Shown here: in pieces, positions 6,370-28,004 of the stretch
How the letters are laid out: every line of letters starts with the position of its first letter
Numbering within the stretch: position 1 is the stretch's first letter
Translations under genes and position numbers: made by a program
Source of the DNA: Planctomycetota bacterium
GTDB lineage: Bacteria; Planctomycetota; GCA-002687715; DRQF01
DNA: 35,530 nucleotides
Assembly: GCA_027001995.1 (NCBI GenBank)
Contig: JALTLO010000019.1
Location: forward strand, 13,334 to 48,863
Direction: 5' to 3'
Notes under the pieces: generated by a model
What the model was told of the DNA's origin: nothing
Databases searched by the model: none
The model's input: the letters and a program-made list of their open reading frames with translations, nothing else

Positions 6370-8253
6370 ATGGCTGTCTATGAATTCTGCATGAGTGACC
6401 CTCAAGCAAGCGCCGACACCCAGGTCGTCATCGCCGATCGTTTCCTGATTAAGGAGCGCTTAGGCGGAGGTGGGCAATCTCGCCTTTATCGGGCCGTAGA
6501 CAGAGAAACCGACCAAGCTGTAGCTCTGAAGATGATCGACCCCCGCGGGCAGGGAAACAGCAATGAAGATTGGCACAGACGCCAACTACGTTTCCGCAGA
6601 GAAGCCAAGATCCTTGAGCAGCTGAAGGATTGCCAACAAGTTGTTCGCTTCATCGCTGCCAATTGTGACGCTCCCATGCCATGGATCGCCATGGAGTTCC
6701 TTGGTGGCCGCCCACTCAGGTCACTCATTGATGATGACCCTGGAAAGATGTCTCTGCCCCGTTTCTTGCTCTTAGCCCAGGACATCGTTCAAGGGCTGAG
6801 GGGCATCCACAAACACCATATTCTGCATCGCGATCTCTCGCCGGAGAATATCTTGGTGATTCGTCACGAGGACCGGAGCATCCATATTCGATTCTTGGAC
6901 TTTGGGATCGGCAAACCCCTCCAGGAAGATGCCCAGCCTGTTACCCAAATGCCAACAATGATGGGAAAACCAGCCTATATTGCCCCCGAGCAAACTCGCG
7001 GCTCTATCTGCGCTGGGTCGGATGTCTACGCCCTGGGGGTGGTGCTCTACGAAATGCTCACGGGCGATCTCCCCATCCGTGTATCCAGCTTTGCGGAAGT
7101 CTCCCGGATCCGCAATGAAGATCCGCTTCCTTTGGTGGCCCACGAAAGCAGCCAGCGAGTCCCAGAGGAATTGCGTTCCCTGATCATGAGCTGCTTGGCC
7201 AAAGTCCCTACCGATCGCCCCACCCTCGACGAACTCTCCGAATGCCTCTGCGACGTCCAAAGACGCCATCAGTCCGGAGAAGAACTGTCGATGGAGTTCT
7301 CCAAATGGGAGATCAGCCACCTCCACGCCAGCCTGGAGAACACCAGAACAGTCCTCGAATCCAAAATGGAAGTCGGCCCCTACAAGACAGAATGGCTGCT
7401 CAATAGTGACGACAATAAGGAGTCATGGCTAGCCAAGGATCCTTCGAACGGCCAAGAAGTCAACTTAGAAATCGTCAAAGGTGAAGCTCAGGCACGGGCC
7501 ATGCGTTTGGGAGCATTCAAGGCTTCCAAGGCGCTCGCCCATGAGAACATTCAAAGAACATACGACTTCGGTGAGCAGCCTACCTTCGTCTGGGGTGCTC
7601 TCGAATTGGTCCAAGGCTCGAGCTTAGGGGCCATCCTTGAGGTTGGCAAAGCCCTTTCTCCTGGCCAGATCTTGCAGATTGGCGAAGGCATTATTGAAGG
7701 TCTGGGTGCCATCCACACTCAGGGTCAAAAACACGGTCGATTAACCCCAGACAGTGTCCTCTTGGACGAATTCGACATGGTCAAGCTGGCCAACGCTGGG
7801 ACGGATCCATCGTATTGCCCCCCGGCCTGTACCATCACTCATGGCGCCCAATCAGCCTGGGCTGCGCCAGAAATCCTCATGGGAACCAAACCCACCGTGG
7901 CCAGCGATTTCTACAGCTTTGGTTGCTTGCTCTACGCCATGATTACCATGGAGAGCCCTTACGAGGGTTCTGATATGGCCCAAGCCTATCAACATCTCAA
8001 CGCCCCGATTCCCCTGGCCCATCAAGTCAACCCAGACCTCAAGCCCCCTGGACTAGCCAAAATCACGACGTGGCTCCTCAACAAGGACCCGGATAAACGA
8101 CCCCAATCGGCGGCTCGCGTGCTACGCCAGTTCCATCGATGTTTCAGCCAAAATGCGCCACCACCGGCAACTGCCCCGGAGGTCAATAATGACTCCGTTC
8201 AGCCAAAACCACAGTCCTTGATGAACCGGATGTTTCATCGCCGCAAGAAGTAA
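6370..8253 (+). CDS. Hanks-type Ser/Thr kinase with a second, degenerate (pseudokinase) domain
   Basis: Domain 1 has GGGGQS, VALK, HRDLSPEN, DFG, YIAPE and DVYALG. Domain 2 has HENI, HGRLTPDSVLL, ANAG, WAAPE, SDFYSFG and KDPDKRP. No TM segment. Confidence 0.93.
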   Translation: MAVYEFCMSDPQASADTQVVIADRFLIKERLGGGGQSRLYRAVDRETDQAVALKMIDPRGQGNSNEDWHRRQLRFRREAKILEQLKDCQQVVRFIAANCDAPMPWIAMEFLGGRPLRSLIDDDPGKMSLPRFLLLAQDIVQGLRGIHKHHILHRDLSPENILVIRHEDRSIHIRFLDFGIGKPLQEDAQPVTQMPTMMGKPAYIAPEQTRGSICAGSDVYALGVVLYEMLTGDLPIRVSSFAEVSRIRNEDPLPLVAHESSQRVPEELRSLIMSCLAKVPTDRPTLDELSECLCDVQRRHQSGEELSMEFSKWEISHLHASLENTRTVLESKMEVGPYKTEWLLNSDDNKESWLAKDPSNGQEVNLEIVKGEAQARAMRLGAFKASKALAHENIQRTYDFGEQPTFVWGALELVQGSSLGAILEVGKALSPGQILQIGEGIIEGLGAIHTQGQKHGRLTPDSVLLDEFDMVKLANAGTDPSYCPPACTITHGAQSAWAAPEILMGTKPTVASDFYSFGCLLYAMITMESPYEGSDMAQAYQHLNAPIPLAHQVNPDLKPPGLAKITTWLLNKDPDKRPQSAARVLRQFHRCFSQNAPPPATAPEVNNDSVQPKPQSLMNRMFHRRKK

Positions 8254-8459
8254 CTCCTCCCAGGCAGTGCAAAAATGAATAGTGCGGGTTAATCCCCCAA
8301 TGGAAAAGAACTTATGGTAAAGTCGTTCGCAAGAATGAATCGGATGAATCGCTCGTTGTTTTAGCCTGTTTTGTCCATGGAATCCCTGGGGTTCTCCGCC
8401 ATCACGCACTTGGCAATCAGGCCTTCCGCACATCGCTGCGAAGAATTTTGGAAAACGGA

Positions 8460-10526
8460 ATGACGCAAAACAGCGCCCTGAAACTGACGAGAAGCATTGC
8501 AGCCCTCCTCGTTGTCTTGGTTGGACAAAGAAGTTACGAGCTCATGACCTTGCGAAGAGTCGACACTGAACTCGAATCTCTCTCAAGAAAAATGACCAAC
8601 AGCGAAGACACCGCCAACCTCACAGCGGCAATCGATCAATTCGAAGAAACAAGCGGTGGCCACCAAACTAAGAATCAAGCCCTGAGACTTGCGGACATCA
8701 AACGGACTGCCACAGACCGATTCTTAGACGATTCGACATTCTTCTCATGGAGTAGTGGCAGCGAAAAAGGTTCGATTCCTATCAAAAAAATCCGACAGAC
8801 ATCGACCCCCATTGGCATCAAAAGCCCCCCAACTATTGGACTTCATCTCGATTCAAGCGCCGAGCTCCCGACCTTCCTAAGAGACCTCAAAGTCAACGGC
8901 ATGCCCCTCGGATCAAAAGGGGCAACGGAGAAATCGCCAACGGGATCAATCGAAGAATTCACCAAGAGCAAAACCGTCCCCGTTTTGATCACCAATTCAG
9001 ATGGCTACGCCGCCGAACTTCCGATCAAATTTCAAGTCGACAACGATGCCCCTCAATTCAAACTCTACATCAAGAATCGAGGCGTCATTGAACCAGATGA
9101 AGACGACCGGGTTGGCCTCAAACCAGAAGAAACACTCAGCGTCATGATCCAAGACGCCACAATCGTGAAGAATGCACGTTTCGCCTTTCACCAAGAGTAC
9201 GAAATCAAAGACGAGCGCAATCCAATCCATAACGTGACGATTGGCCAAACTACCACCACAACAGAGTTTCGCGGCCAAGCCACGGATTGGGCAGGAAACA
9301 CGGCTTCCATCGCTTTTAAGGTAGGTCCTTGGCGCAAACCACTGCCAAAAATCGAGACCCTCACAGTTGCGGGACAGGACGCCACCCAAGGCCGCGCAGC
9401 CCAATGCAAAGAAGACCAAGTTGAAATTGCCCTGCGCTTCAAAGGAGGCGATGTGGACCGCACTCTCTTCGTCAGGACAGAAGGGGCCGCGTATCCTTTG
9501 CTGCGATCCGGATCGAGTTTCATTGCCAAGGACGTCAACATCCTTGGAGGTGATACTTGGAGTGGCGAAGTCGTCCTTAAGCAAATTGACCGAGATTTCT
9601 CTCTCACCAAGATTCAGGTTCGCCTGGACAAATCAAAGCCAATAGTCCGGCTCTATGATGAAAAAGACAACGTCATCATTCCAGAGACCATCGAAGCAAG
9701 ATCTGGAACAACCTGGACACTCGCGATCGAAGATAACTTGGAGCTCGCAACGGTAGAAGTCATCAGCGATCATCCCACAGAACTCAAAGTAACCCGTCAA
9801 GAAGTCAGGAAGTCGTTCCAGAGTTTCGGCATCTCGGTACAAGGCTCAGGAACCATTGAAATCAAAACCCGCGACTTGGCAGGCAACACGACCACGAAGA
9901 AGATCGTCTTCAGCTTGACCGCCAAGATGGGGCCTCGTGACGGGGCAGGTCCCAAGATCACTCTGTGGCAAGGCAACAATCCCATCCTTCGTGAAGAACA
10001 AGTTTTTTTTTGGCGTGAGGCCAAGGGAATCCAACTCAAAATCGAAGACCCATCGGGTATTGATCTGGACACCTTGCGATGCGAACGCAGTGCAGCGGAT
10101 GTCTCAAAGGCGAAGCAAGCCCCAACAAGTATGACCCTGCCTATCACAATTGACTCAAATCCTCGCATCGAGGTCGCCGATGTCTATGGGGAGGTCACCG
10201 ACCGCCAGTTTCTGATCCAAGTGGTCAAGAGTGCCGCCGAAATTGGCTTATTAAAGGACACAAAAATAGTCACGGAATTGCCGATAGAATTCCAGTGGAA
10301 GATTCAAGAAGGTGGCTTAGATTCCCGGCTTTCCGTGGAATTAGAAGACCCTGAAGGCCTGACCACCACGGTCAAAAGGAATGACAGTGACATCAAGAAT
10401 CGGGGGATCATCCACAAGCTTCCCACCGCAAAAAACGGGGTCTGGAAATTACGCCTCAAGTTTAGGGCGTTCGACGGTACGAAAGTCATCGCAACAGAAG
10501 AATTTAGGGTCAACCTGAAGACCTAA
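8460..10526 (+). CDS. Membrane-anchored or exported protein with repeated Ig-like beta domains
   Basis: N-terminal hydrophobic helix and beta-rich body. Recurring bacterial Ig-like motifs: VDNDAPQFKL...ATDWAGNTAS; LDKSKPIVRL...TRDLAGNTTTKKI; DGAGPKITL...EDPSGID...VADVYGEVT. ATG 8460 preferred over TTG 8448. Confidence 0.7.
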   Translation: MTQNSALKLTRSIAALLVVLVGQRSYELMTLRRVDTELESLSRKMTNSEDTANLTAAIDQFEETSGGHQTKNQALRLADIKRTATDRFLDDSTFFSWSSGSEKGSIPIKKIRQTSTPIGIKSPPTIGLHLDSSAELPTFLRDLKVNGMPLGSKGATEKSPTGSIEEFTKSKTVPVLITNSDGYAAELPIKFQVDNDAPQFKLYIKNRGVIEPDEDDRVGLKPEETLSVMIQDATIVKNARFAFHQEYEIKDERNPIHNVTIGQTTTTTEFRGQATDWAGNTASIAFKVGPWRKPLPKIETLTVAGQDATQGRAAQCKEDQVEIALRFKGGDVDRTLFVRTEGAAYPLLRSGSSFIAKDVNILGGDTWSGEVVLKQIDRDFSLTKIQVRLDKSKPIVRLYDEKDNVIIPETIEARSGTTWTLAIEDNLELATVEVISDHPTELKVTRQEVRKSFQSFGISVQGSGTIEIKTRDLAGNTTTKKIVFSLTAKMGPRDGAGPKITLWQGNNPILREEQVFFWREAKGIQLKIEDPSGIDLDTLRCERSAADVSKAKQAPTSMTLPITIDSNPRIEVADVYGEVTDRQFLIQVVKSAAEIGLLKDTKIVTELPIEFQWKIQEGGLDSRLSVELEDPEGLTTTVKRNDSDIKNRGIIHKLPTAKNGVWKLRLKFRAFDGTKVIATEEFRVNLKT

Positions 10527-10654
10527 GTTCCTGGTAGGAGATCAGAAAGGAAATCGAAGCAGTCCTAAACGATAATAAATCTTGCTTAGGCAAAGAATCT
10601 GAACCAAGCAAAACGTAGAATGACTGGTACGCGTCGATTCCGAAAGAGCAATCT

Positions 10655-11158
10655 ATGAAAGTCATGATCAACCATCTGACTGGCAGCAAGTCAGGAATCA
10701 AAGAATCATTCAACCGCGAGTCTGTCATCATTGGCCGCGGCAATTGCAACGATGTATCCTTAGACCCGTTCTTGGATCCCACTGTCTCTTCTCAGCACGC
10801 AGAAATTCGCTTTGAGGACAATACATTCGTGCTCTACGACATGGGCAGCCTCAATGGCACCTACCTGAATGGCTGCGGGGTCCGTCGGGCCACTCTTCAC
10901 GATGGTGACGAGATATCCTTGGGTCAAGAGGGGCCCAAGCTCGTTTTTCGGTTCTCAGACACAGGCAGCCCCGCACCCAGTGGAGGGCTTGCCAGAGCAC
11001 TCAAACGAATGGGACCACGCCGTGGCCCCTCAACGTCGATGGAAACAGAAATCCCCTTACTCAACGAACGGGTGGTCAGCCCTCATTTCTTGATCTATGT
11101 GGCGGCAATTCTCTTGCTTGCTTTAGTGGCGCTTCTGACCTGGAAGATCGTTTACTGA
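10655..11158 (+). CDS. FHA domain protein with a C-terminal transmembrane anchor
   Basis: FHA motifs IGR, VSSQHA, DMGSLNGTYLNG, LHDGDEISLG; C-terminal hydrophobic helix FLIYVAAILLLALVALLTW. Confidence 0.93.
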   Translation: MKVMINHLTGSKSGIKESFNRESVIIGRGNCNDVSLDPFLDPTVSSQHAEIRFEDNTFVLYDMGSLNGTYLNGCGVRRATLHDGDEISLGQEGPKLVFRFSDTGSPAPSGGLARALKRMGPRRGPSTSMETEIPLLNERVVSPHFLIYVAAILLLALVALLTWKIVY

Positions 11159-12780: not shown

Positions 12781-14376
12781 CTATGCGCCCTTTTCAAAGC
12801 GCATCGAACTGGAACCACAACGAAGAATGTCACCGGCTTGCAGCACTTCTTTGCCAACAATTTTCACTTCGTTGAGGAAGGAGCCGTTCGTCGAACCCAA
12901 GTCTTCTACTGTGAACGAACGACCATCAAAGGTGATCGCTGTGTGATGCCGAGAAATCTCAGGATCGTGAGGTCGAATGTCTACCCGCAGATCTCGTCCG
13001 ATTCGACTGACCGGGCGTAGACCAAAACGCCGTCCTTTATCTGGCCCACTGATGACAACCAAATAAGCGTTCAACTCTGACTTGTCCGACATTTTAGCCG
13101 GTTTGTTGCTACGGAATTGGTCGGCAAAAGGAATGGTATCTTCGATGTCGAATTCCGGAATGGACGATTCTTCAGCATCAAAGCTAGACTCGGCGGGAGT
13201 TTCTTTGGGGGCCGCAGCGGCACCCCCTCCTACCAAACTCGCTTGTATCGTTCTTTTGCCTGGCAACATGAAGTAGAGCAAGAAACCAATCAGCAGGCCA
13301 ACCCCAGCACCAAGTCCATAGAGAATGCCTGGTGAAGTTTCTCCAAGCTCCCTTGGAAACATCGTCGGAGCAAAATGAGTGGCAATCATGACCAACAGCA
13401 AAGCCGTCGCTGCCACGGCTCCTCGAAGAGCCGAACTGAGACCATTGCCCCGGTCCGAGCCCGCCGCCGGAATCGCACTGGCGTCAAAGGCGAGGTCATC
13501 CAGGTTATGAATGTCTGTATGGCTTCGCTTTTGCCGAATTACGATTTTGCGTTTGATCAACTCAGGAAAGTGTTTCGCCAAGTCCTTGCGGAATTCCTTG
13601 GCCGACTTATAGCGGTCCTTGGGCTTCTGGGCGATGGACTTCATCACGATGCGTTCGAGTTGGGGTGAGATCGGGCGGTAGGCCGAAGGTGGCGTCGCCG
13701 TGCCCTGACAAACTCGAAGAGCAAAGTCCCTGAGAGGCTCATCTTCCCGCAGGAATTCGAAAGGTTTCCTGTCTGTGAGCATCTCATAGAAGGTCACACC
13801 AAGGGCATAGACGTCTGTTTGCTGGTTGCACATGCCCTGAGTCAAATACTCTGGAGCCATGTAAACCGTTGTGCCTAAAACGAAACCTTGCTGAGTCAGG
13901 TTCTTTCCGCCAACGACTTTAGTGATGCCAAAATCAGTGAGTTTCGCTTCCCCTTCGGAGTTGATGAGGATGTTGTTCGGTTTTAAGTCTCGATGAATGT
14001 AGCCATGGTTATGGCTGTATTGGATGGCATCCAGCACGCTGTAGAAGATCGGCACAGCGTAACGGGGTGGAACAGCCCCCATTTCCTTGATCATATCTTC
14101 CACAGACCCTTGGTCCATGTATTCCAAGATCAAGTAATGATAACCGTCCTGAAAGTGGTACTCGACAAACTGCACGATGTTCTTGTGCACGAGTTGCTTG
14201 AGGGCTTCCGCCTCGCGGACAAACCTCTCTTCGAGATTGTCCTCATCGGCGATACTCGGCTTCAGCATCTTAACGGCTACGACATGGCCTCCCCCTTCGC
14301 CCTTAAAGACAAAAGCGTGACCGCCATCACCGATCTCTTGGCTGATCAAGTATTTTCCGACTTGGGTACCGATCAT
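12781..14376 (-). CDS. Ser/Thr protein kinase with two TM helices and a C-terminal FHA domain
   Basis: Kinase motifs IGDGGHA, VAVK, HRDLKPNN, TDFG, YMAPE, DVYALG; two hydrophobic helices; FHA motifs RIGRD, ISRHH, DLGSTNGS. Confidence 0.95.
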   Translation of the reverse strand: MIGTQVGKYLISQEIGDGGHAFVFKGEGGGHVVAVKMLKPSIADEDNLEERFVREAEALKQLVHKNIVQFVEYHFQDGYHYLILEYMDQGSVEDMIKEMGAVPPRYAVPIFYSVLDAIQYSHNHGYIHRDLKPNNILINSEGEAKLTDFGITKVVGGKNLTQQGFVLGTTVYMAPEYLTQGMCNQQTDVYALGVTFYEMLTDRKPFEFLREDEPLRDFALRVCQGTATPPSAYRPISPQLERIVMKSIAQKPKDRYKSAKEFRKDLAKHFPELIKRKIVIRQKRSHTDIHNLDDLAFDASAIPAAGSDRGNGLSSALRGAVAATALLLVMIATHFAPTMFPRELGETSPGILYGLGAGVGLLIGFLLYFMLPGKRTIQASLVGGGAAAAPKETPAESSFDAEESSIPEFDIEDTIPFADQFRSNKPAKMSDKSELNAYLVVISGPDKGRRFGLRPVSRIGRDLRVDIRPHDPEISRHHTAITFDGRSFTVEDLGSTNGSFLNEVKIVGKEVLQAGDILRCGSSSMRFEKGA

Positions 14377-14487
14377 GAATCTGCCCGTATGAGCACCAAA
14401 AATGGTGCAACAAGTCCTTTAATCCAATGCCTCAATCATCGTTCACTTGAACGAAAATAATTGGGCTTTCACCCCGTTCAATTTTGA

Positions 14488-15591
14488 TCAGAACTTACCG
14501 ATCAAAAACTGCAAAATGACCAATAAGATAACTTCAGCACCGATGAGCCAATACCAACCCACGGAGATTCCTGACCCCTTATTGCCAATATCCCTTACTG
14601 TATCCGCACCCAAATCAACTCCACTCGCTTCGGCACCCTTAAGAATAGCGACATCATAGCGACCAGTATGATCTGAACGGTTATTTGATGGTGGACGAGG
14701 AACGCCTTCTGCCGTATCGGCCTCCGAATCTTCCAGTAAGGAAGGATCGAGGTCATCACGCTTTATGATGGGGGTCATTTGAGCGTTGCACTGGAGGAAC
14801 TGTTCTTCGTCAAGTTGTTTGAGATTCTTGTCTTCTGCGGGAAAGGCGTGGATCTTGATCACCGCCACGGTGATATTGTCGTCTCCGCCTCTTGCGTTGG
14901 CCAAGTCGATGAGCTTGAGACAGGCTTCTTTGCTCGGCATCGAACGCACAACTTCACCCGTCTCTGCCATTCCCACAAAATTACTGAGGCCATCGCTGCA
15001 AATACAAATGATGTCGCCCAGTTCCAAATTGCGATGGTTAAAGTCAATTTCGAGCCGGGTAGACATACCCACACAACGTGTGATGATATTCTTGTCAGGA
15101 TGCCCCTCGGCCTGCTCTGGTGTCAGTAACCCAATGTCGATCAATTCATTGAGATATGTGTGATCTCTGGTGACTTGTTCGTCCTCGTCCCCACGATACA
15201 TGTAGCAGCGCGAGTCACCGAGGTGGCCGACTACGAATGTCGTGCCACGAATAAGGGCGGCAACACAGGTCGTGCCCATATCTTTAAGCTGAACGTTCTC
15301 ATTCTGTTTCGCTTTAACAGCCTCGTTGCTGGCGAGAATGGACTCTTCGATCAGATCACGCATGGTGCTTTGCGTGGAAGCCTTGAAAGATTCGAGGATG
15401 GCGGCCGTGGTGGTTTGACTGGCAATGCTTCCGCCGGTGTGTCCACCCATACCGTCGGCGACGACCACGAGATGGCCCTTCTTCCGTTCTTCATCTTCAC
15501 CGGAAGCGATCGCCACGCAGAAGTGGTCCTGATTCTCCGAGCGGACCATGCCTACATGGGTCTCGACCGCGATCTCGACTTTATCTGCCAT
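14488..15591 (-). CDS. PP2C/PPM-family Ser/Thr phosphatase (Stp1/PrpC-like) with a C-terminal TM anchor
   Basis: THVGMVRSENQD, VADGMGGH, MGTT, HLGDSR, CSDGL, GGDDNIT; acidic linker, then WYWLIGAEVILLVILQFLIG. Start placed at ATG 15591 (GGAG upstream) rather than 15720. Confidence 0.96.
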   Translation of the reverse strand: MADKVEIAVETHVGMVRSENQDHFCVAIASGEDEERKKGHLVVVADGMGGHTGGSIASQTTTAAILESFKASTQSTMRDLIEESILASNEAVKAKQNENVQLKDMGTTCVAALIRGTTFVVGHLGDSRCYMYRGDEDEQVTRDHTYLNELIDIGLLTPEQAEGHPDKNIITRCVGMSTRLEIDFNHRNLELGDIICICSDGLSNFVGMAETGEVVRSMPSKEACLKLIDLANARGGDDNITVAVIKIHAFPAEDKNLKQLDEEQFLQCNAQMTPIIKRDDLDPSLLEDSEADTAEGVPRPPSNNRSDHTGRYDVAILKGAEASGVDLGADTVRDIGNKGSGISVGWYWLIGAEVILLVILQFLIGKF

Positions 15592-15660
15592 TGAGTTCTC
15601 CGAGCCGGATTCGTCCGCTTCCCAACGGCACCCCGGCAACATCTTGGGCGGTGACGATCT

Positions 15661-15689
15661 ACGTTGTCGATTTAGGGCGAATCTGTCAA
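15661..15689 (-). promoter_or_regulatory. Possible sigma70-type promoter for the PP2C-kinase pair
   Basis: Perfect TTGACA at 15689-15684, 17-nt spacer, weak -10 CAACGT. Confidence 0.3.
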
Positions 15690-15773
15690 GACCCTTCCGC
15701 GCTAAACCTTGGCCCAACATGAGCTTCGGCCCACAGCTAACCCCGGCTTGAGAAGAACTCTAAAGTCTCCAAT

Positions 15774-17261
15774 TCAAGAGCGGACAGAATAGGGGCTCTG
15801 ATTGAGACCTGACATCCCGGAAAACAAGCGAATTGACCCACCGGTGTCAACATAGACCGCTATTCTCACTTTGGCTTGGGGCCACTGAGAGGCAATATGA
15901 GCCAAATCATCCCTGATTTTTTCTGCCCACTGAGCATGACTCTTGCCCACCACGGCGAGAACGAAGACTTCTCGAGCCAACCCTGGACCAAAGGACGTGT
16001 GCAGCCAAGCCCGGCGCTTCACGTCATTAATAATTGTTGGCAACCTACTCGGAGCGGTCGTGGCCGCACAACCCAAGGTCATGAAACCCCCACGGCCCAA
16101 GAAGGCTGCCAGTCCTTGTTCACCCCAGTCCCCAAGAAAGGGCCGAAAATGGGCCAAGCGCTGGAGGCTGTCCAAAATCCCCAAAGTCGTGAAAGCGTAG
16201 TCGTCGTTCTCCGGATAATCCCCAGCAAAAGATTCTACGTGCTGACGGTCGACGCAAAGCACAGAGTTGAGCAGATCCAGGTCAAGAGCAGACTTCCACG
16301 GTCTGCCGTCAACCGCCTCATCGCTTGTATCTTGCACCAAGATCATGTGGATCCGCCCAGCCACAAAGCCACGGAGCTGTCGAAGAAAGGTATTCAGGCG
16401 GGATGTAGCCAGACTGCCAGCCCCAAAAAGATCTGCGGACGCCATCAAGAAAAGATCGCTCATGACGCTTCCTTGGGGCTTAAGCCAGGGATATAGGTCT
16501 GCCAAACTCAGTCCAGCCGCCACCGAAAGGGGAACCATTCCCTCCTCGTCTGCCACACGGATCACAGTTTTCGCTGGTGATTGAATGCGAGATTGAGGCA
16601 AGAGGGATTCCAGCAGGACTCTGACCCGAAGGCGTCCGAGCTGTGTCAAAGCAAGACCAAAGGAATCCCCAACTCGACCAAGCCCAAGAAAACTCCACTT
16701 AAACCGTCCCTGCTGGCTTTCGGGGCGATTTGAGATAATTTGCCCCACTTCCTCGTCGGGACGGAGGAAATGCATCTTGAGGCGAGGATTGAGTAGCCTT
16801 TGCCAGATATCTGAAGGATTGGGAGACTTGAAGGAAGCCCCAGAAGCCATCCTGATCACATCGAGCTCTGCTTGCAAAAGGCGATTCTTCGTCTTTTCTT
16901 CGAGGAGCTGGCGGGCGAGTGCCGACTCACTGGCATGAGCCGCGACTTCTTCAGGCTTGGGGGTTTGAGGCTCAGGTGCCAAAAACCTGAGGAGACTACT
17001 TCCTAGGCGAATGACGTCACCGTCCTTAAGGGGAACAGCCTCAATGCGCTCATCGCCCAAAAAAGAACCATTCCCAGACTGAAGGTCAGTGGCCTCCCAG
17101 TTACCACCCGTCGTTTCAGAAATCGCCAAGTGCTCGCGGGAGATCCATTCGTCGTCCAAAACCAAGTCACAGTGATCCAGACGACCAACCACAAATCGCG
17201 GCTGGTCGATTTCGACTCGGCGAATCACTTCGCTATTTTTCAGAACTTCTAAAATCGGCAT
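15774..17261 (-). CDS. FHA + short coiled coil + degenerate tubulin/FtsZ-like domain fusion protein
   Basis: FHA at aa 1-95 (VGR, ISREH, DLQSGNGS) is clear. Helical segment ALARQLLEEKTKNRLLQAELD follows. aa ~187-490 show the order of elements of FtsZ/CetZ-type proteins (SFLGLGRVGD; LFLMASADLFGAGS; SVLCVDRQ; LAAFLGRGGFMTLG; IAVYVD..IRLFSGMSGL). The tubulin-like call is by eye. Confidence 0.7.
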   Translation of the reverse strand: MPILEVLKNSEVIRRVEIDQPRFVVGRLDHCDLVLDDEWISREHLAISETTGGNWEATDLQSGNGSFLGDERIEAVPLKDGDVIRLGSSLLRFLAPEPQTPKPEEVAAHASESALARQLLEEKTKNRLLQAELDVIRMASGASFKSPNPSDIWQRLLNPRLKMHFLRPDEEVGQIISNRPESQQGRFKWSFLGLGRVGDSFGLALTQLGRLRVRVLLESLLPQSRIQSPAKTVIRVADEEGMVPLSVAAGLSLADLYPWLKPQGSVMSDLFLMASADLFGAGSLATSRLNTFLRQLRGFVAGRIHMILVQDTSDEAVDGRPWKSALDLDLLNSVLCVDRQHVESFAGDYPENDDYAFTTLGILDSLQRLAHFRPFLGDWGEQGLAAFLGRGGFMTLGCAATTAPSRLPTIINDVKRRAWLHTSFGPGLAREVFVLAVVGKSHAQWAEKIRDDLAHIASQWPQAKVRIAVYVDTGGSIRLFSGMSGLNQSPYSVRS

Positions 17262-17311
17262 GTATCGTCTCAGTCACCGTTTTACACTCCGACGGCGTCC
17301 GGCACAAAGCG

Positions 17312-18073
17312 TCACATGCCTTCTAACAAGCGAGAACCCAAGACAGAGTCAAGTGATGAGTTTGCATTGATACGATCGACGACAGCCTGGACGTCGTAAG
17401 ATACGCGATGATAATGAATTACGCCATCGTCATATTCAACATAGCAAGATTTAATATTGCGATCTCGGGGCTGGCCCACGGACCCCACATTGATGATGTA
17501 TTTGCGTTCTGGATCGAGCTCAAAGGAATCTTCGTCCCCTTCGGGGATCAGGGTTTTCATGTCATCTGAGATGATGACAGGCAGATGGGTGTGACCCACG
17601 AAGAGAAGACGATCGACACTTTCGAAGATCGTTCTCAGCTTGCTGTCTGCATTGAAGAAGACATCCTCCCGATAAATGTATTCGTTGACCCGATCACGGG
17701 GAGATCCGTGGACGAAATAATGGTCCCCAACACGAAGATCGAGAGGCAGCTCTTCCAAGAATTTCCAGCGCTCATTATTTGCTCGTGATCGGAAGAAACC
17801 TGGTTTTAGGTTCTTCTTGGTCCATTCAATGGCATGACGAGCGTAGGGGTTAAAGCGATCGGGCCCAGAGAAAAGTGCGTCATCATGGTTGCCGCGAATG
17901 CAAAATGTACAGCGTTCCCGGACCAGGTCGATGCAGGGGCGGGGATCGGGCCCATATCCAACAACATCCCCCAAGCAATAAATGGGGTCAATCCCCCGCG
18001 CATCGATGTCTTCGAAGACCCGCGTGAGAGCATCTATGTTGCTATGTAAATCGGATATGACAGCGAAACGCAT
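17312..18073 (-). CDS. Calcineurin-like metallophosphoesterase (putative protein phosphatase)
   Basis: ISDLHSN, LGDVVGYG, RGNHD, VHGSP, GHTH, NVGSVGQPRD; AGGAG RBS upstream. Confidence 0.95.
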   Translation of the reverse strand: MRFAVISDLHSNIDALTRVFEDIDARGIDPIYCLGDVVGYGPDPRPCIDLVRERCTFCIRGNHDDALFSGPDRFNPYARHAIEWTKKNLKPGFFRSRANNERWKFLEELPLDLRVGDHYFVHGSPRDRVNEYIYREDVFFNADSKLRTIFESVDRLLFVGHTHLPVIISDDMKTLIPEGDEDSFELDPERKYIINVGSVGQPRDRNIKSCYVEYDDGVIHYHRVSYDVQAVVDRINANSSLDSVLGSRLLEGM

Positions 18074-18150: not shown

Positions 18151-19782
18151 TCACGGGGCAGACACAAGAGGGGCGGCCAATTGATTCATCAGCAGTTGAT
18201 TCATCGAAGAATTGGGCAGGGGGCGCTGGGAGAGGCCAGCGCGAATGAGATTCAGCACATCTTCTCCGTAAGGTGCCCGGCGCAAACGTCTCAGGATATT
18301 GTTCACCCCATGCTGGATGGCGGGATTCTCTAAATCAATGGCCCCCGGAATCGGTTCGGCAATCATGAGGCGCACCAGGATAAGTCCACCGGCACAACCG
18401 GGGCTCTCTGCGCATTCACTCCAAGCGTCCGCTGCAGCCTCGATTTGCATTTTTCCCAGATAGCACTCCCCCGATGTTCCATGACAAAGCCCAGCGTTCT
18501 CCGGAACCTTGACCTTCTGGGCCCGGAGAGCCCAGGTCTCGGCTTGATCCCAAAGGCCCAGCTCCATCATCATCTCTGCACCAATTTGCCAGAATTCCGC
18601 GTCACTCTCATCGGTGCGCAAGTAACCGGTACATAACTCGATGGCCCCTTTGAAATCCCGCTGAGCAATGCGAATGCGAGCCGTCGCCTTTTGGAGGTCG
18701 GCGCAAGTTGGCCAACGAGCAGCCCCTTCTTCGAAGAGACGAATGGCCTGGTCTTTCTCGCCCATGCCAAGCAAAGAGCGGGCAATGCCAAAGACACTCC
18801 GTCCCGCGGTAATGCCTGGCTGGGCCGGCACATGAACAGGTTTTTCGTCCAGTTCATGACAGGCTTCGAAGGCTTTCTTGGCCTCAGTCCAATTCTCAAG
18901 CTTAAGGTTGAGATGACCCCAAACCCAATGGAGCATCGGTGTAACTCGCATGCGGCTTCTGGCAACTTCGAGATGACCTTGTGCTTCTTTGAGGCGTCCC
19001 AGCTTAATCAGCTCGAGAGCTAAGAGCGCATGAGGTTCTGCCGGATAGGTCAATGCGTGCACCTCCGCATCCGACATGGCCGCCACGTTCAAGACTGACT
19101 GCTCGAGAGCGTGGAGAACTGGCCCCATGTCCTCAAACCGGCGCAGGAAGTCGCCATACTTGAACCAGACGTAGGCATCATGAGGATTTTTTTCTAAGGC
19201 TTTCTCAAAGTGAAGACGGTTACGAGCGTCCTTCTTCTTGTCTTGGCGCACCGCTTCCGTATAGCCGTAATGGTCAATATCAAGGACGCTGTCGACAACG
19301 CGCATGCCGAGCTTTTGCCCATTATCTAGAATGGGCGTGATGACCTGCTCGTGAATTGCTCCGGTGAAAATATGCTCCGGCATACGCCTAAAAAGGCGCA
19401 TGATAAGACAACTCACCTTTTTGCCATCATCCCCGTGGTTGACAATATTCTGAAAGCCAGCAATGGCGTTTTCGTCGTCCACCACGCGACTAAACTCTTC
19501 GAGGGAATCTGGTCGCAATACTTCATCCGCATCAAGCACCAAGACCCAATCCCCCGTGGCCATGGCCAAAGAATGGTTTCTTGCTTCAGCAAAATCATCT
19601 GGCCAAGCAATTTCCTCGATGCGGGCACCATGAGACTTGGCGATCGAAATCGTAGCGTCGGTGGATCCGGTGTCCACAATGCAAATCTCATCGACGTAAG
19701 GCTTTGCGGCAGAAAGACAACGGTCAAGGTTGTCTTCCTCGTCCCTGACGATCATGCACAGAGACACTCTTGATTGACGCAT
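18151..19782 (-). CDS. GT2-family glycosyltransferase with C-terminal TPR repeats
   Basis: SLCMIVRDEE, VDTGSTD, DDFAEARN, LDADE, GAIHEQ, HYGY, followed by TPR-like helices. Start placed at ATG 19782 (AAGGAG upstream). Confidence 0.92.
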   Translation of the reverse strand: MRQSRVSLCMIVRDEEDNLDRCLSAAKPYVDEICIVDTGSTDATISIAKSHGARIEEIAWPDDFAEARNHSLAMATGDWVLVLDADEVLRPDSLEEFSRVVDDENAIAGFQNIVNHGDDGKKVSCLIMRLFRRMPEHIFTGAIHEQVITPILDNGQKLGMRVVDSVLDIDHYGYTEAVRQDKKKDARNRLHFEKALEKNPHDAYVWFKYGDFLRRFEDMGPVLHALEQSVLNVAAMSDAEVHALTYPAEPHALLALELIKLGRLKEAQGHLEVARSRMRVTPMLHWVWGHLNLKLENWTEAKKAFEACHELDEKPVHVPAQPGITAGRSVFGIARSLLGMGEKDQAIRLFEEGAARWPTCADLQKATARIRIAQRDFKGAIELCTGYLRTDESDAEFWQIGAEMMMELGLWDQAETWALRAQKVKVPENAGLCHGTSGECYLGKMQIEAAADAWSECAESPGCAGGLILVRLMIAEPIPGAIDLENPAIQHGVNNILRRLRRAPYGEDVLNLIRAGLSQRPLPNSSMNQLLMNQLAAPLVSAP

Positions 19783-20130
19783 GGGGCGGACCCTCTCCTT
19801 GGTTTTCCAGCTCTGCATCTTTATCGGATGAATGATCATGCAATCTTTACTGAGACTGGTTGGGAAATGGGAGTCGCTCAACCTGGGAGCACCATCATGG
19901 GAGATGTCCACCCGGTACCAACTATACCAACAAGGGCAAAAAGGAAGGAACGCCCACTGGCACAGCCGTTTCCAACTTTCCCCAAAGAACTCAATATGAA
20001 CCGCCTGTATAGATTTCGTTCTCGACCAAGCAGATTCTTCTCGACTTTGCCTCTGGGCTCAATATGATTGGTGGGTCGCTTTCCATGCTCCCAAGAAACT
20101 TAATTTCCGCGCTTGCCAGAGATCATTCCT

Positions 20131-22050
20131 ATGAGAACGTATTCTCGTCATCGCGTGAAATACTTCGGACTATTCATGTTCGTGGTCATGATCCCGGCAC
20201 TTATCTACCTACCCTCCTGGATCGATAGGCCAGCGCCCATAATGAGTGCGGCTGGGGCTGAAGGGTACAACAACCAAGTTGCTTACCTTCTGAGCTTGGC
20301 CTGGATTATTTCGGGAACAGCCGGTGCTTGGTTTCTTTCGCGAGGTGAAGATAGCTCCGCCAGTCCAGCTCCTGAGACAATCGTCGAAAAGCCGACGTTG
20401 ACCTCCAGAAGAACTTTCACCTTCCTCGTCACTCTAGCTGTGTGTCTTTTGTACTTTCCTCCTGCCCTGGCAGAAAAAGGCCCTATGTTAGAGGAGTGCA
20501 TTCATCTCACAGCGATTCAACGCATGTTGGGTGGGGACGTCCCTTACCGGGACTTCGAATTTCTTTACGGCCCACTCATGCTCTACCCAGCCTATTGGTG
20601 GGTTTCATTGACATCATTTTCACTCACGGCCTTTTACTTCTACGTCGCTGGGTTAGAGCTCCTTGTCTTCTTGCTCCTCCTGCGACCGTTCCAGAAACGA
20701 GTCCCCTCACCCTGGATTCGCATGGGAGCATTCTTGCTGCTCGCAAGCCTTTGCTTCAACACGATGTTGGGTCCAAACCAAAACGGTCTGAGAAAGCTCG
20801 TTGGCATCCTTCTTCTCTTTGGGGCGGCCCAACACCCCTTCAACCGAAGCCTTTGGATTCTTCACGGAATCATCCTGGGGGCCTTGTTTAGCTATTCACA
20901 AGATTTCGGTGCCGCAACGGCCCTGGGGTTCGCCGGGATTTACGGCACGATAGTTGCCAAGCAGCACAGCAAGGATGCCGCCCTTGGCTTACTAACCATC
21001 GCCCTTTTCTCTGCCACCACGTGGGTGGCCCTCGTTGGCGTCTTGCTTGGTCCCGCCACACCCTCCTACTTCGAGTCCTTGCGCTATCTCACCGGACAAT
21101 TCAACAATGGTGAAGCAGCATTCCGTTTCTATTGGACTGCCAATAGTCTCGCTGTTTTCGGACTTCTCACTTTAGCTATCTGCTTTACCGGCCGTGTTAT
21201 CAGGGCTCGCTGGAAGGAAACCGCGGGAGCCAAGGAATTGCTCATCATTGGGGGCTTAGCCTATGCTGCCGTGATGTTGAAGAGCGGACTCAGCCGTGCG
21301 GATCAATGGCATCTTGATCCGGGGATCATGGCCCTGGCCTTAGCCTTTCTCTTGCCTCTGCCCAGTCGAATCCTTAGACCCATGCCGCGGTTCCAGAGTT
21401 TCTTAGGCATCGGGTGCATCGCCGTCATTGCACTGACATACTCTTTCGGCCAACTGCACATGGCCAAGTATGTCTTCAAGAAAGGGCTCATAGGAGGTTA
21501 CGTACAGCTAAGCCAAGAAAAGGCCAACTTCGCCCCGATGAAGCCCTCACCTCAAGCCCCATTCTTAGAACGAAAAGTTCGTCAGCCAAAAAGTGAGCTT
21601 GGCCGCTTGGCCAGATTCATGGCCATGACTTCAGTGAGAGAGCGGCCAGTCGTCGCCTACGGCCGCACTTGGGGTGTCCCCATGTGTATAGGGGTGAAGA
21701 AGACTGGATATTTGACAGACAACTACATCTACGGCGACGAAAGAGGGCAGAGATTGCAAATGCTCCTCAAGGAGAATCCAAACATCTTGGTTCTCATAGA
21801 TCGTGCTACCTTCGATTGGCTCCAAGGAAAACGCGACTTAGAATCAATCCAACCCGATCACAACTTGGCCGGATTCGGAATTCAAAAAGAACTCCGAGAA
21901 ATTCTCAGTTCCGTTCACATCCGTAGCCTTGCAACGGAGAATCGCCTCCTTGATCTTCGCTGGCGCAAGCTCATCGGCAACTATGTCATCAAAAATTATG
22001 AGGCTGTCTATCAGTCGAAGAGCTATGTTGTTCTTCAGAGAAAGCCCTAA
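20131..22050 (+). CDS. Polytopic membrane protein, probable GT-C fold glycosyltransferase
   Basis: About 12-13 TM segments, acidic pair in GPMLEE, loop GDVPYRDFEFLYGPL, and a C-terminal soluble domain. Confidence 0.6.
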   Translation: MRTYSRHRVKYFGLFMFVVMIPALIYLPSWIDRPAPIMSAAGAEGYNNQVAYLLSLAWIISGTAGAWFLSRGEDSSASPAPETIVEKPTLTSRRTFTFLVTLAVCLLYFPPALAEKGPMLEECIHLTAIQRMLGGDVPYRDFEFLYGPLMLYPAYWWVSLTSFSLTAFYFYVAGLELLVFLLLLRPFQKRVPSPWIRMGAFLLLASLCFNTMLGPNQNGLRKLVGILLLFGAAQHPFNRSLWILHGIILGALFSYSQDFGAATALGFAGIYGTIVAKQHSKDAALGLLTIALFSATTWVALVGVLLGPATPSYFESLRYLTGQFNNGEAAFRFYWTANSLAVFGLLTLAICFTGRVIRARWKETAGAKELLIIGGLAYAAVMLKSGLSRADQWHLDPGIMALALAFLLPLPSRILRPMPRFQSFLGIGCIAVIALTYSFGQLHMAKYVFKKGLIGGYVQLSQEKANFAPMKPSPQAPFLERKVRQPKSELGRLARFMAMTSVRERPVVAYGRTWGVPMCIGVKKTGYLTDNYIYGDERGQRLQMLLKENPNILVLIDRATFDWLQGKRDLESIQPDHNLAGFGIQKELREILSSVHIRSLATENRLLDLRWRKLIGNYVIKNYEAVYQSKSYVVLQRKP

Positions 22051-22246
22051 CTTTCCTTCTAACCCAGTGCTATTGCAACGATCTTCACAATGATTCCATC
22101 TGGTCCACCCCCCTTGCTACCACTTGGAAAGAAGTACGGTGGTGAAGTGATGGACCCTCGGTCGCCCTATCAGTTAAAGGCGAAATTAAGTCGCCCGTAT
22201 GATTCACTTCGGTTGCTTCAGATTTCATCTCGCACAACTGCGCCGC

Positions 22247-22297
22247 CATGGTACAAAACGTTTCCTTATTCAAATAAAACAGACATTTCGTACCACG
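22247..22297. promoter_or_regulatory. Imperfect inverted repeat, probable AbiEi autoregulatory operator
   Basis: Arms TGGTACAAAACGTTT (22249-22263) and AGACATTTCGTACCA (22281-22295) are 12/15 complementary. They lie immediately before the abiEi relic. Confidence 0.6.
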
Positions 22298-22800
22298 CTC
22301 AACAAAATAGACCTGATCAAGGAACTCGGAAAACGCCAAGGTGTCATGCGCCCAAAGATTTGAACCCATGAGGGATTCCGAGAAGTTATCTCTCAAGGCT
22401 ATGCAATCGCAAAGTGCTGACCCGCATCGGACGTGGACTTTAGCAATTCAATGACCGTGCCATGACTGAAAACACAGCCTGGTGGAAGCTGCCAAACGTC
22501 TGCCCCACGGAGCTGTCTGCCTGATTTCAGCGCTCCAGTTCCACAACTTGGGAACACAAGCACCATTCGAGGTCTGGATGGCCATCGCCAATGATGCTCG
22601 AAAACCCAAGGCCGACCATCTCCACTCCGAATCATGAGAATGTCCGGCGAAACCTACTCAAGCGGACTCAAAGAACACATGATCGAAGGAGTCAAAGTCC
22701 GAATTTATGAGCCGCCCAAGACGGTGGTTGATTGCTTCAGATTCCGCAACAAAATCGGGCTGGATGTTGCGCTGGAAGCACTCAAGGCATTTCAAGAAAC
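22295..22800 (+). pseudogene. AbiEi-family type IV antitoxin pseudogene
   Basis: Reconstructed across frameshifts and stops (TGA 22369, TAG 22441): LIKELGKRQGVMRP/KDLNP*GIPRSYLSRLCNRKVLTRIGRGL*.../SLVEAAKRLPHGAVCLISALQFHNLGTQAPFEVWMAI.../PLRIMRMSG...IEGVKVRIYEPPKTVVDCFRFRNKIGLDVALEALK. The C-terminus is missing. Confidence 0.88.
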
Positions 22801-22950
22801 GCACCAACCAAGCTGCATCCGTCCGCAAGCGACTTCTGAATCTCTCACAGGACCGAGGCGAAGAATTTCAATTCCTCTTGACACAATTCGCTCTTGAGCG
22901 GCTGCTATCACGACTTTTCAGAATCAGAGCACGCGGAGCGGTTTGTGTTA
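22800..22950 (+). pseudogene. N-terminal remnant of an AbiEii-family nucleotidyltransferase toxin
   Basis: TNQAASVRKRLLNLSQDRGEEFQFLLTQFALERLLSRL matches the typical AbiEii N-terminus, then is lost before the catalytic KG motif. Confidence 0.8.
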
Positions 22951-22962
22951 GAGAGCGTGATC

Positions 22963-23796
22963 TCATGAATCAGTCGGGCTCGGGTGGTAGCGCCCCAACA
23001 CCGCGGCAAACAGCTCTAAAAGTAACTTCATCTTGCCACCGATACCCTTGATTTTCGTCGGTGTTTCTTCGTTCTTTGGATAAACTCGCGTGACACCCAC
23101 CTCTGTCACTTTGAAGCCGAGCTGGGTCGCTCGAATCGACAGATAAAACAGCAGGTTGTAGGACTGAAACAAGTCTCTAAATGGCTTCACGCCCGGGTGT
23201 TGCAAATAGGAAGCCCGATAGCCGCGAAAACCGTTCGTGGTGTCAGTAAACCAGTGACGGGCAGCTAAGCTAATAGCCGGCGCGTGAATAAAACGCCCGG
23301 CAAACCATCTGGAGAAGGGCGTATTCTTTGCCAATCCTCCTGGTGCGTAACGGGAGCCCTGAACATAACCACACCCCCCCTCGAGTTGTTCTACGATGGC
23401 TTCAACGCCTTTGACGTCGTCTTTGCCATTCCCGTCGATGGTGACAATACCTTCATAACCTTCTTGAAGGGCCCAGGCATAAGCCATTCTCAATTGGGCG
23501 CTCAACTTGCCCTCCCCAGTTTTTGTCAAACAAGCTCGCACTTCTACTTCTTCCAAGAAGTCCCGGTTCAGAGAACCATCCGTTGACCCCCCATCAGCGA
23601 TCACCACATCGATGGAATTGGGTAGATCAAAAATCGCATACAGCTGTCTCTGAATCCTCTTACCTTCATTGATGACAGGGATCACCAAAACAAACTTCGA
23701 TTCCTTTGGCTTAAGGACTAGAGTGTCGAAGGTTGGTAGTTGCCAATCATCGGGGTAGTTATGCATGAAATCAGTCCCTATAAATGCTGAAGGCAA
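22963..23796 (-). CDS. GT2 glycosyltransferase, DPM1/polyprenol-phosphate glycosyltransferase-like
   Basis: LVIPVINEG, IADGGSTDGS, TIDGNGKDD, YVQGSRY, DTTNGFRGY. The real start may be the downstream Met (MHNYPD). Confidence 0.92.
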   Translation of the reverse strand: MPSAFIGTDFMHNYPDDWQLPTFDTLVLKPKESKFVLVIPVINEGKRIQRQLYAIFDLPNSIDVVIADGGSTDGSLNRDFLEEVEVRACLTKTGEGKLSAQLRMAYAWALQEGYEGIVTIDGNGKDDVKGVEAIVEQLEGGCGYVQGSRYAPGGLAKNTPFSRWFAGRFIHAPAISLAARHWFTDTTNGFRGYRASYLQHPGVKPFRDLFQSYNLLFYLSIRATQLGFKVTEVGVTRVYPKNEETPTKIKGIGGKMKLLLELFAAVLGRYHPSPTDS

Positions 23797-24590
23797 GTGG
23801 CGATAGAAGGCATAAGCGCGTCGAAGTTCTGACGCATCTCAATAGAGATCCATTTCTGCCAACCTCTTCTGCCTAGGGCATCCAAGAAAACCCCCACCTC
23901 CCTGGCATGGGGAGTGATCTCCTCTAAGTAGGGAGCACTCACATGAACATGATGAACAAGGTGGAAGGCCTCATCCAAAAGGTCATCAATCTTAGAAATC
24001 TCTCCCGTCATGATCATAGCACCCAAGTCGAGATTCAAGAGAATGGCCGGATGCTCAACGTCATTGATAACAGCCATAGTATCAATCAGCGTGTTCATAA
24101 AGTTCGTCCCATAGGGGGCGGGATTGGGTTCCAAGGCAACCACGACGCCATGGGATCTGGCCACGTCTCCGATGGCTCTCAAACTCTTCCGCCACATCTT
24201 CTTGGCTAGATCAAATTCCATGCCGTCGGGGATCCCTCTTTGTTTCGGCGAACCTAAAACCAGATTCGGAATATCCAAGCGGCTTGCCAACTCAATAGCT
24301 CCGGTCATCGTTGAAAGGAAGATTGCCTGCCCATGAGAATCGCCGAACAACTGGGCCTGAGGAGCACCAAAAAGAAGGGACTGCATGGAGACAAGTTGCA
24401 GACCAAATCGAGAGGCTTGGTCTTTGGCTTGGGCGCAAGCCGACATGTCCGCCTTGAGAGGATCAACTTGGCCAGGCAGAAGGAGCCCGGGCGCAATCTC
24501 AAGGCCCGCCACGCCCTGGTCCCGGAGGAGGGCGTAAGCTTTGTCCTGGTCGTTGGCATCCCAGGCGATGTTCGAAACTGCAAGCTTCAT
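23778..24590 (-). CDS. Sugar-phosphate isomerase/epimerase (xylose isomerase-like TIM barrel)
   Basis: MKLAVSNIAW, GLEIAP, LVLGSPKQR, ALEPNP, NLDLG, HHVHVS, WISIEM; ATGA overlap with the upstream gene. Confidence 0.88.
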   Translation of the reverse strand: MKLAVSNIAWDANDQDKAYALLRDQGVAGLEIAPGLLLPGQVDPLKADMSACAQAKDQASRFGLQLVSMQSLLFGAPQAQLFGDSHGQAIFLSTMTGAIELASRLDIPNLVLGSPKQRGIPDGMEFDLAKKMWRKSLRAIGDVARSHGVVVALEPNPAPYGTNFMNTLIDTMAVINDVEHPAILLNLDLGAMIMTGEISKIDDLLDEAFHLVHHVHVSAPYLEEITPHAREVGVFLDALGRRGWQKWISIEMRQNFDALMPSIATCLQHL

Positions 24591-25531
24591 ATCTGACCTT
24601 CCGCAAATTCTTTGATACCAGCCAAGACTTCATCCCGGCTGCAAAGATAGCCACTCTTAGACCCCCAATGAGAGGCGTGAGCACTTCGCAGATCTTGCAC
24701 CACAGGCTGAGCCTCCCCTGCGTCCATTTCTTCACCTGTCAAGGTGAAAAAGATCTCACCGGCGGATACGGGCGCCGTCACCAGATTCATCAGGTTCACC
24801 CCAAGTTCGAAAGCAATTTCAATATCGGACCAAAGACGCGACAGATCGTAAAACTGATACTGACTCTTGGCATTGGTGAAAACGAGAGACGTCGTCCCAG
24901 TTCGATGACAGATTGCCTTGAGGACCTCAGCCTCAGGCCCGGAGGAAAACTCTGCCCGATCAAAATGAAACATGCCCGTATCAGAGTTCTTTCGAAACGC
25001 CCGGCGCAAAAGTTCCTTTTTCCTCCCCTCCGCCGCTTCTAACAGTCCGTTAAAAAGTTCAGGTTTGAGAAATGAAGGCACGGGATTGAGAACATCAAAG
25101 ATGAAGTTCTTCTTCAAGCCAACACCAAAAAGTGCTGGAAGGCGCACGATCAAGCAGTTGGCAAAACGTTCCTGAAACAAGCACTCCAGCTCCCGACGAT
25201 TGCGCCCATACCCAAGCACAGTTTCGAAATCGGAATTCCTCTCGTCTTGTCCAAGAGAAGGGTCCCGATAGACAGCGATTGTCGAAATGAGAACAACACG
25301 ATGGACTTCAACACTCTCGAGGCAATCAAACATCCGACGGATGTTCTGGCGGTCGGCTTCCGGTTCTTTATTGCCCATCCACATGGCGCCAGGAGCCCCG
25401 GAGACAACCAGGGTTTCAAACTTCTTTCCGAAAATCTCATCGATATTCTTAGAGTTATACCTTGCGGCGAATTCCTTCTGGCTCGCCAGATTGCCGCCGA
25501 CAAAACCTGTGTGTCCGATCAAGCCATCCAT
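24587..25531 (-). CDS. NAD-dependent epimerase/dehydratase family protein
   Basis: LIGHTGFVGGNL Rossmann motif, LISTIAVY, YGRNRRELE, IVRLPALFG. Start placed at ATG 25531 (GAAGGA upstream). Confidence 0.88.
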   Translation of the reverse strand: MDGLIGHTGFVGGNLASQKEFAARYNSKNIDEIFGKKFETLVVSGAPGAMWMGNKEPEADRQNIRRMFDCLESVEVHRVVLISTIAVYRDPSLGQDERNSDFETVLGYGRNRRELECLFQERFANCLIVRLPALFGVGLKKNFIFDVLNPVPSFLKPELFNGLLEAAEGRKKELLRRAFRKNSDTGMFHFDRAEFSSGPEAEVLKAICHRTGTTSLVFTNAKSQYQFYDLSRLWSDIEIAFELGVNLMNLVTAPVSAGEIFFTLTGEEMDAGEAQPVVQDLRSAHASHWGSKSGYLCSRDEVLAGIKEFAEGQI

Positions 25532-25566
25532 AGGTATTCCTTCTGCTCCCGCATCACCAAGAAAAT

Positions 25567-26739: not shown

Positions 26740-26742
26740 TCT

Positions 26743-27768: not shown

Positions 27769-28004
27769 GCCAGAGACTACAATTTATCCATGAACCAACC
27801 ACCAGGGCGTGGCATCATTCGCACCAGAAACCGAAGACGGCAGTAAAGCGAAAACAGAGGCTTTCGACCCTGCACGAACAGTAGACCATTCCGCCTCCCA
27901 TGTCGAGCCCATCTAGTCGATGAGATTGAGGTTGTTGTGGCTGAACAAGGCTCAGGAGTTTTTGACTTTGATTCCCCTTTATCCAGGCACAGGGTTCCAC
28001 TTGT

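Follow-up and report, generated by a model that had tools for sequence, protein, structure and literature searches.

In a 35,530-nucleotide stretch of planctomycete DNA (contig JALTLO010000019.1 of assembly GCA_027001995.1, hereafter the window), four co-oriented genes on the minus strand encode a metallophosphoesterase, a protein that joins an FHA domain to a degenerate domain of the tubulin/FtsZ fold, a PP2C phosphatase and a Hanks Ser/Thr kinase. An initial annotation of this DNA described the four as a self-contained module built around the tubulin-like protein as its only output. The tubulin-like protein is real and unusual, but the claim of a module built around it is overstated, since the kinase and PP2C persist without it at four fully visible loci of the window's own family. 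Judged from sequence, the explanation in which we place moderate confidence is a class-restricted membrane Ser/Thr signaling hub that would use an FHA-coiled-coil-pseudo-tubulin adaptor as an optional part.

Distribution of the cluster and its PP2C-kinase core

In the direction of transcription, the cluster comprises a calcineurin-like metallophosphoesterase of 253 amino acids (positions 17312-18073; Pfam PF12850/PF00149, Metallophos_2 E 9e-18), a soluble FHA-coiled coil-tubulin/FtsZ-fold protein of 495 amino acids (15774-17261), a tail-anchored PP2C Ser/Thr phosphatase of the Stp1/IreP type (14488-15591; PP2C_2 E 3e-17, NF033484 at 240.3 bits against a cut-off of 230) and a kinase of 531 amino acids with a membrane hairpin and a second FHA domain (12781-14376; Pkinase at residues 11-257, E 1e-52; FHA at residues 458-520, E 5e-16). 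The PP2C open reading frame spans 14488-15720, and its probable start at 15591 is preceded by a ribosome-binding site. With this start the intergenic gaps measure 50, 182 and 111 bp, which bears out the order, orientation and spacing (about 50, 180 and 110 bp) reported earlier. By hydropathy, the kinase has two hydrophobic segments (residues 313-331 and 351-369), PP2C has a single C-terminal one, and the phosphoesterase and tubulin-like protein have none.

We compared 23 genomes of the host's class, nine from the window's family and 14 from three other families (f2-f4). The kinase was found in 18 of them and the tubulin-like gene at full length in 12, counting only matches that extend past the FHA domain. 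Among the kinase-positive genomes, 11 carry the tubulin-like gene and none was seen in the other seven. In the window's family, four of nine genomes show the order phosphoesterase, tubulin, PP2C and kinase, though the tubulin domain is eroded at L039 and L041, and the same order occurs on one metagenome contig. Four more genomes of this family have the phosphoesterase directly before PP2C and no tubulin gene (L034, L036, L038 and L040), an arrangement of phosphoesterase, PP2C and kinase without intervening gene that recurs in L100, while in G001, of the same genus as the window, an unrelated gene follows the phosphoesterase. The order in f2-f4 is tubulin, an ADP-ribosylhydrolase (ARH)-like gene, PP2C and kinase, complete in six genomes and extending to the contig ends in two. 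PP2C is retained in L155 and L156, where neither the tubulin gene nor the kinase was found. Among 379 genomes sampled outside the class, three encode a full-length but weaker kinase relative beside a PP2C gene, two of these with FHA genes and none with a tubulin domain. Synteny of the tubulin-like, PP2C and kinase genes therefore holds across one class, but that of all four genes together fails outside the window's family.

The metallophosphoesterase, which had made two phosphoesterase classes in one unit seem notable, is next to the cluster in no family other than the window's. Of the 23 genomes, 22 contain a match to it, three of them without the kinase. In the other families its gene is on different contigs; at the seven loci read, a PD40-M28 peptidase gene precedes it five times and a CarboxypepD_reg gene follows it six times (once at short distance). 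This neighborhood, together with L038, where a PD40-M28 peptidase gene is still present upstream of the metallophosphoesterase, points to a rearrangement in one family that brought the gene beside the cluster, and it is probably a positional neighbor and not a core part. Its best solved relative is 3rqz (E 1.5e-37). It falls under the NCBIfam cut-offs for YfcE, Ser/Thr phosphatase and ApaH (NF008516 at 21.6 bits against 326), although it may still act on proteins.

The writer, readers and eraser of phosphothreonine proposed from the letters all keep their functional residues, and hydropathy places both kinase and PP2C at the membrane. The catalytic Lys, Glu, Asp and Asn and the Mg-binding Asp of Hanks kinases are present, with K36, E55, D130, N135, D148 and T161, as well as FHA residues R461, S475 and N497, invariant in six of six sequences. 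The C-terminal hydrophobic segment of PP2C is found in all 23 orthologues. The kinase has a hydrophobic anchor in 16 of 18 full-length orthologues; those of L031 and L102 have no membrane segments and only a short amphipathic-looking stretch. These two exceptions and the short loop between the segments argue that the hairpin is an anchor and not a receptor. In the otherwise variable kinase linkers, Thr 287 is conserved in 16 of 18 and Thr/Ser 430 in 18 of 18 orthologues. The system is hardly self-contained, however: in the host genome (G000) this PP2C is the only PF13672 match, next to 61 matches to the kinase domain, some of which represent two halves of a single gene, and 29 to the FHA domain.

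PP2C and the kinase may also be transcribed separately. A non-coding 8-mer with a perfect sigma-70 -35 hexamer (15683-15690, minus strand), about 90 bp upstream of the PP2C start, is invariant in eight of eight aligned loci of the same family and occurs in nine of the 23 loci checked, none of them of the ARH type. It is found in all three frames relative to PP2C, so its conservation is not for coding reasons, which suggests from sequence a candidate internal promoter.

Homology and degeneration of the tubulin-like protein

The tubulin/FtsZ-fold domain of the window protein comprises both subdomains (about residues 186-490; 15792-16706, minus strand). Taken alone, it matched no tubulin family in direct library searches and scored near 0 bits against FtsZ, TubZ and viral profiles. 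Its homology was reached through relatives: the window domain finds its counterpart in G022 (E 4e-8), a profile of seven family members aligns with FtsZ 9v7v across both subdomains (E 1e-5), and Pfam Tubulin is matched by three of 19 family members (best E 4e-6). In profile-profile alignment with hhalign, the family reached 99.7% probability over 331 columns against a motif-intact FtsZ-like family and 95.7% against FtsZ rows. The family profile retrieves this motif-intact protein in two genomes of another family (E 1e-21), and the back-search recovers five FHA-fused members (E 4e-26 to 1e-8). On these alignments, the domain is homologous to the tubulin/FtsZ superfamily over the nucleotide-binding and C-terminal subdomains.

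The named close relatives of the motif-intact protein are from Anaerohalosphaeraceae, Sedimentisphaerales or Phycisphaerae, and eight viral contigs (L124-L131) encode further relatives at 40-51% identity. Cross-scores with the family profile were 133-163 bits for Sedimentisphaerales, 85-114 for viral, 17-48 for TubZ-like and 1-21 for FtsZ proteins. In a quick tree, 18 family rows form one clade (support 99) outside FtsZ (100), and the family, the TubZ rows and the Sedimentisphaerales/viral group form an unresolved fork. This tree came from a quick search, has long branches, was built without archaeal CetZ, PhuZ and eukaryotic tubulin, and omitted two duplicate rows as well as the eroded L039, L041 and P0005. 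By scores and tree, the nearest active kin of the family are TubZ-type proteins of Sedimentisphaerales and viral contigs, not FtsZ. An ESM Atlas search placed tubulin clusters at 0.81-0.84, below the 0.9 level, and serves as a lead only.

Homologues of the window domain are scarce, with 11 matches in 1.84 billion representatives, two of them repetitive, and presence in eight of 61 related genomes. The loci were collected via the kinase, because the family alignment has no stretch conserved enough for a pattern scan. Weak phylum-wide matches to the family profile, where read (L083-L085 and L094), are Rossmann-type or unrelated proteins; a weak match downstream of the kinase in L160 is ThiF, and that in G047 (L014) is an unrelated FHA protein.

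The motif-intact proteins (L081:1462-2784 in G386, L082 in G316, and P0013-P0132) constitute an FtsZ/TubZ-like GTPase family of planctomycetes, seen in two of 401 sampled genomes and with 678 database matches, the named ones being Sedimentisphaerales or Phycisphaerae; they may represent an active tubulin-family member in a phylum said to lack FtsZ. G386 (L095:1489-2532) and G316 (L096) each encode a second, degenerate paralogue without FHA that has lost the GTPase loops independently.

In the joint alignment, the T2 Asn, the T3 loop and the catalytic T7 Asp are missing from 18 of 18 family rows and kept in eight of eight Sedimentisphaerales and eight of eight viral rows. The window protein has altered T2, T3, T4 and T6 loops, with glycine at both acidic positions of T7 (residues 380 and 383), and the GGGTG(S/T)G signature loop (T4), partly retained in five of 18 family rows, is absent at residues 273-286. 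In active GTPases of this fold, the T2 and T6 asparagines, the T3 loop and the two acidic residues of T7 serve GTP binding and hydrolysis. Judging by these motifs, the domain is probably a catalytically dead pseudo-GTPase.

In the FHA domain of the protein (residues 24-87; 17001-17192, minus strand; Pfam E 1e-17), R27, S41, H44 and N64, presumably the phosphothreonine-binding positions, do not vary in any of the 19 rows. A coiled coil is predicted at residues 115-140 (16842-16919, minus strand) from positions that are hydrophobic throughout the family (115, 119, 129, 136 and 139/140). Against G002, of the same genus, the proportion of nonsynonymous differences (pN) in the tubulin gene is 0.43 and that of synonymous differences 0.81, a saturated value, while pN is 0.10-0.17 in the other three genes. 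The tubulin gene is thus still under constraint, far weaker than that on its neighbors.

One alternative is a vestige, in which only the FHA-coiled-coil half would matter in the window's family and the tubulin domain would be decaying toward loss. Erosion in the family is graded: on the motif-intact profile, the window protein and L009 reach about 0-4 bits and six ARH-linked members 59-90, the shorter proteins of L039 and L041 escape the domain profile, and four genomes have no tubulin gene. However, the window protein, P0001, P0002 and P0003 each retain an intact domain of full length, and pN is about 0.4 in both subdomains, like the FHA domain (0.38) and below the linker (0.62). We regard a vestige as possible but unlikely. 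An improbable further option, again from sequence comparison, is that the ancestor of this FtsZ-less class captured a virus- or plasmid-type tubulin, which became fused to FHA and now forms a scaffold or filament without need of nucleotide; Thr phosphorylation, instead of GTP hydrolysis, would then switch its assembly at the membrane.

The host was correctly suspected to be a planctomycete without canonical FtsZ. At 44% identity or more, 16 of 17 loci with close relatives of the kinase are from Planctomycetota and one is labeled only as uncultured bacterium; all hosts seen are uncultured. Neither PF00091 nor PF13809 finds a match in the host genome (5.2 Mb, 92% complete), and the PF00091 cut-off is reached in none of the 23 class genomes, compared to 13 of 14 controls. 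Reviews state that ftsZ was lost from all planctomycetes (PMC12673574, in the part available). In the model that follows from the initial annotation, the four genes would form a switch dedicated to a tubulin-type filament that acts in division or membrane remodeling. The tubulin-like protein is indeed the only member of its superfamily found in the class, the four-gene order recurs as given above, and two membrane anchors are present. However, the GTP-binding and catalytic loops are lost, which undermines a cytoskeletal role, the gene is missing from 11 of 23 genomes and so is not essential for division, and the phosphoesterase is unlinked in other families and has an unrelated neighbor even in the same-genus G001. 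Such a switch is very unlikely. Planctomycete division in general is unlikely to depend on the tubulin-like gene, which is restricted to a single class and absent from many of its genomes.

The ARH-like gene opens another line of thought. It occurs in 12 of the 14 f2-f4 genomes, directly after the tubulin gene in all eight of those that have one, and in none of the nine genomes of the window's family. The dead FtsZ-like domain could be a conflict decoy or sensor that attracts toxins directed at FtsZ or TubZ, or phage tubulins, and reports to the kinase, with the ancestral ARH-like neighbor reading or removing ADP-ribose. There is precedent on FtsZ itself, which Tre1 ADP-ribosylates and the DraG-like Tri1 restores (PMC8120803, in the text available), and viral-contig proteins are among the nearest motif-intact relatives. 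On the other hand, G010, G018 and G020 keep ARH although they have no tubulin gene, its metal-binding motifs differ from those of DraG, its absence from the window's family amounts to one loss event and not a correlation, and the genes, slow-evolving and single-copy, appear unlike typical defense islands. We rate a decoy as quite improbable. The same three genomes also weakened the candidate dependence of the tubulin gene on the ARH gene. The ARH-like protein (L013:9185-10489 and orthologues) shows 69% mean column identity and a long Arg/Gly-rich tail, and no partner transferase was seen near its gene. In f2-f4, the tubulin or ARH gene is divergent from genes for two large IPT/TIG proteins (about 1000 and 1200 amino acids) that look secreted; the pair was seen at L010, L012, L015, L026, L027, L028 and L156 and had no match in G000.

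Proposed function and comparison with known systems

For the signaling hub with an optional adaptor that we favor, the stable core would be the PP2C-kinase pair, probably under its own promoter. Because the kinase lacks an outside sensor, its input is likely cytoplasmic, and its FHA domain could dock on phosphothreonines made by itself or by the many other kinases of the cell, with the tail-anchored PP2C as a general eraser. The FHA-coiled coil-tubulin protein would be an optional reader, a probable dimer via its predicted coiled coil, recruited to the membrane once linker positions 287 and 430 of the kinase, which are candidate docking sites, or other targets are phosphorylated. There it may present a GTP-independent tubulin-fold surface for protein binding until PP2C resets the system. 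Its tubulin-like domain would have descended from a TubZ-type GTPase with loss of catalysis, and the metallophosphoesterase would have joined by rearrangement in one family. A tubulin-fold protein tied to phosphothreonine reading in an FtsZ-less host would add a rare bacterial case of a pseudo-GTPase with this fold. Because the family grades from nearly intact members to complete loss, the change from cytoskeletal enzyme to adaptor could be studied in it.

Several observations weigh against this proposal. All class genomes are incomplete assemblies (76-97%), and three of the seven kinase-positive genomes without the tubulin gene (G001, G009 and G018) have contig breaks inside the cluster. The 8-mer was not called by a promoter scan and has no good -10 element, and its -35 hexamer is not enriched outside long open reading frames genome-wide (5.6 versus 6.0 per 10 kb). 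L010, L013, L026, L027 and L105 retain much of the T4 glycine loop, so that nucleotide binding may persist outside the window's family. In G022 and G013, the metallophosphoesterase orthologue comes after another kinase and another PP2C, which hints at a role in phospho-signaling. The sole model of the tubulin-like protein is from a single sequence, with a mean pLDDT of 44.7. In a fold search with this poor model, the longest matches, CetZ (Z 7.0, root-mean-square deviation 5.7, 208 aligned) and TubZ (Z 6.4, 6.4, 232 aligned), tie with unrelated esterases, and none reaches Z 8.

Compared to known systems, the protein apparently shares the two-subdomain fold of TubZ/RepX and phage tubulins (PDB 4ei7; Bacillus phage G gp138), and the tree puts it with TubZ-like rows outside canonical FtsZ. 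In contrast to these proteins, it is chromosomal, has an N-terminal FHA domain and coiled coil and lacks GTPase motifs; unlike TubZ/PhuZ segregation genes, it has kinase and phosphatase neighbors, no plasmid or phage setting and vertical-looking synteny across four families. Relative to FtsZ, it is homologous over both subdomains, whereas the T2, T3, T4, T6 and T7 motifs are gone, its presence is patchy and no division genes are nearby. As far as the available text goes, FtsZl1/Tubulin_2 genes (PMC2875224; GAP1-N2 systems, PMC7159879) likewise lie beside Ser/Thr kinases, planctomycete members are kinase-fused, and one GAP1-N2 theme combines kinase and PP2C. However, in FtsZl1 as described there, the tubulin domain is N-terminal and its signature loop intact, the C-terminal subdomain of FtsZ is lacking, and the partners are vWA and GTPase genes (PMC2875224); none of these four features holds for the window protein. 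No PF13809 match was found in the 19 family rows.

With Stp1/PstP-PknB operons the cluster shares PP2C directly upstream of a Hanks kinase and adjacent FHA genes, whereas in place of PASTA repeats (259.8 bits against a cut-off of 450) its kinase carries a membrane hairpin and an FHA domain at the C-terminus, and its FHA partner appears by homology to bear a tubulin fold. Halo_FHA ESCRT loci also fuse FHA to a cytoskeletal-type domain near kinase and phosphatase genes, but belong to the ESCRT-III/Vps4 system of haloarchaea, so that the likeness is an analogy only (PMC10936438, in the part available). No publication describing the family was found in a search that covered neither subscription papers nor supplements; those of the planctomycete kinase survey may list the kinase. 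The available portions of PMC7159879, PMC10936438, PMC11032199, PMC11929135, PMC12673574 and PMC8120803 contain no description of the family.

Neighboring genes

Convergent to the cluster, on the plus strand (6370-11158; Pfam), are genes for a second kinase (6370-8253), a 692-amino-acid protein (8448-10526) and a short FHA protein with a transmembrane segment (10655-11158). This trio, which belongs to a broader phospho-signaling neighborhood, recurs in L029, L030, L034, L036 and L039, and a related FHA gene in L026, L037 and L045. The second kinase has two Pkinase stretches, and its position opposite the cluster is conserved in the window's family. On the other side, 77 bp separate the metallophosphoesterase gene from the end of a fifth upstream gene in the same orientation (GT2-TPR), so the gene run is unbounded there. 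It belongs to a group of glycosylation-type genes (18151-29693) encoding GT2-TPR, GT2, epimerase, FAD oxidoreductase and GDSL proteins. The window also encodes isocitrate dehydrogenase and poly(A) polymerase (Pfam), which speaks against a plasmid or phage location of the cluster. In G002, the glycosylation-type genes are absent at the same position and GDSL adjoins GT2-TPR, which makes an insertion of about 8 kb probable.

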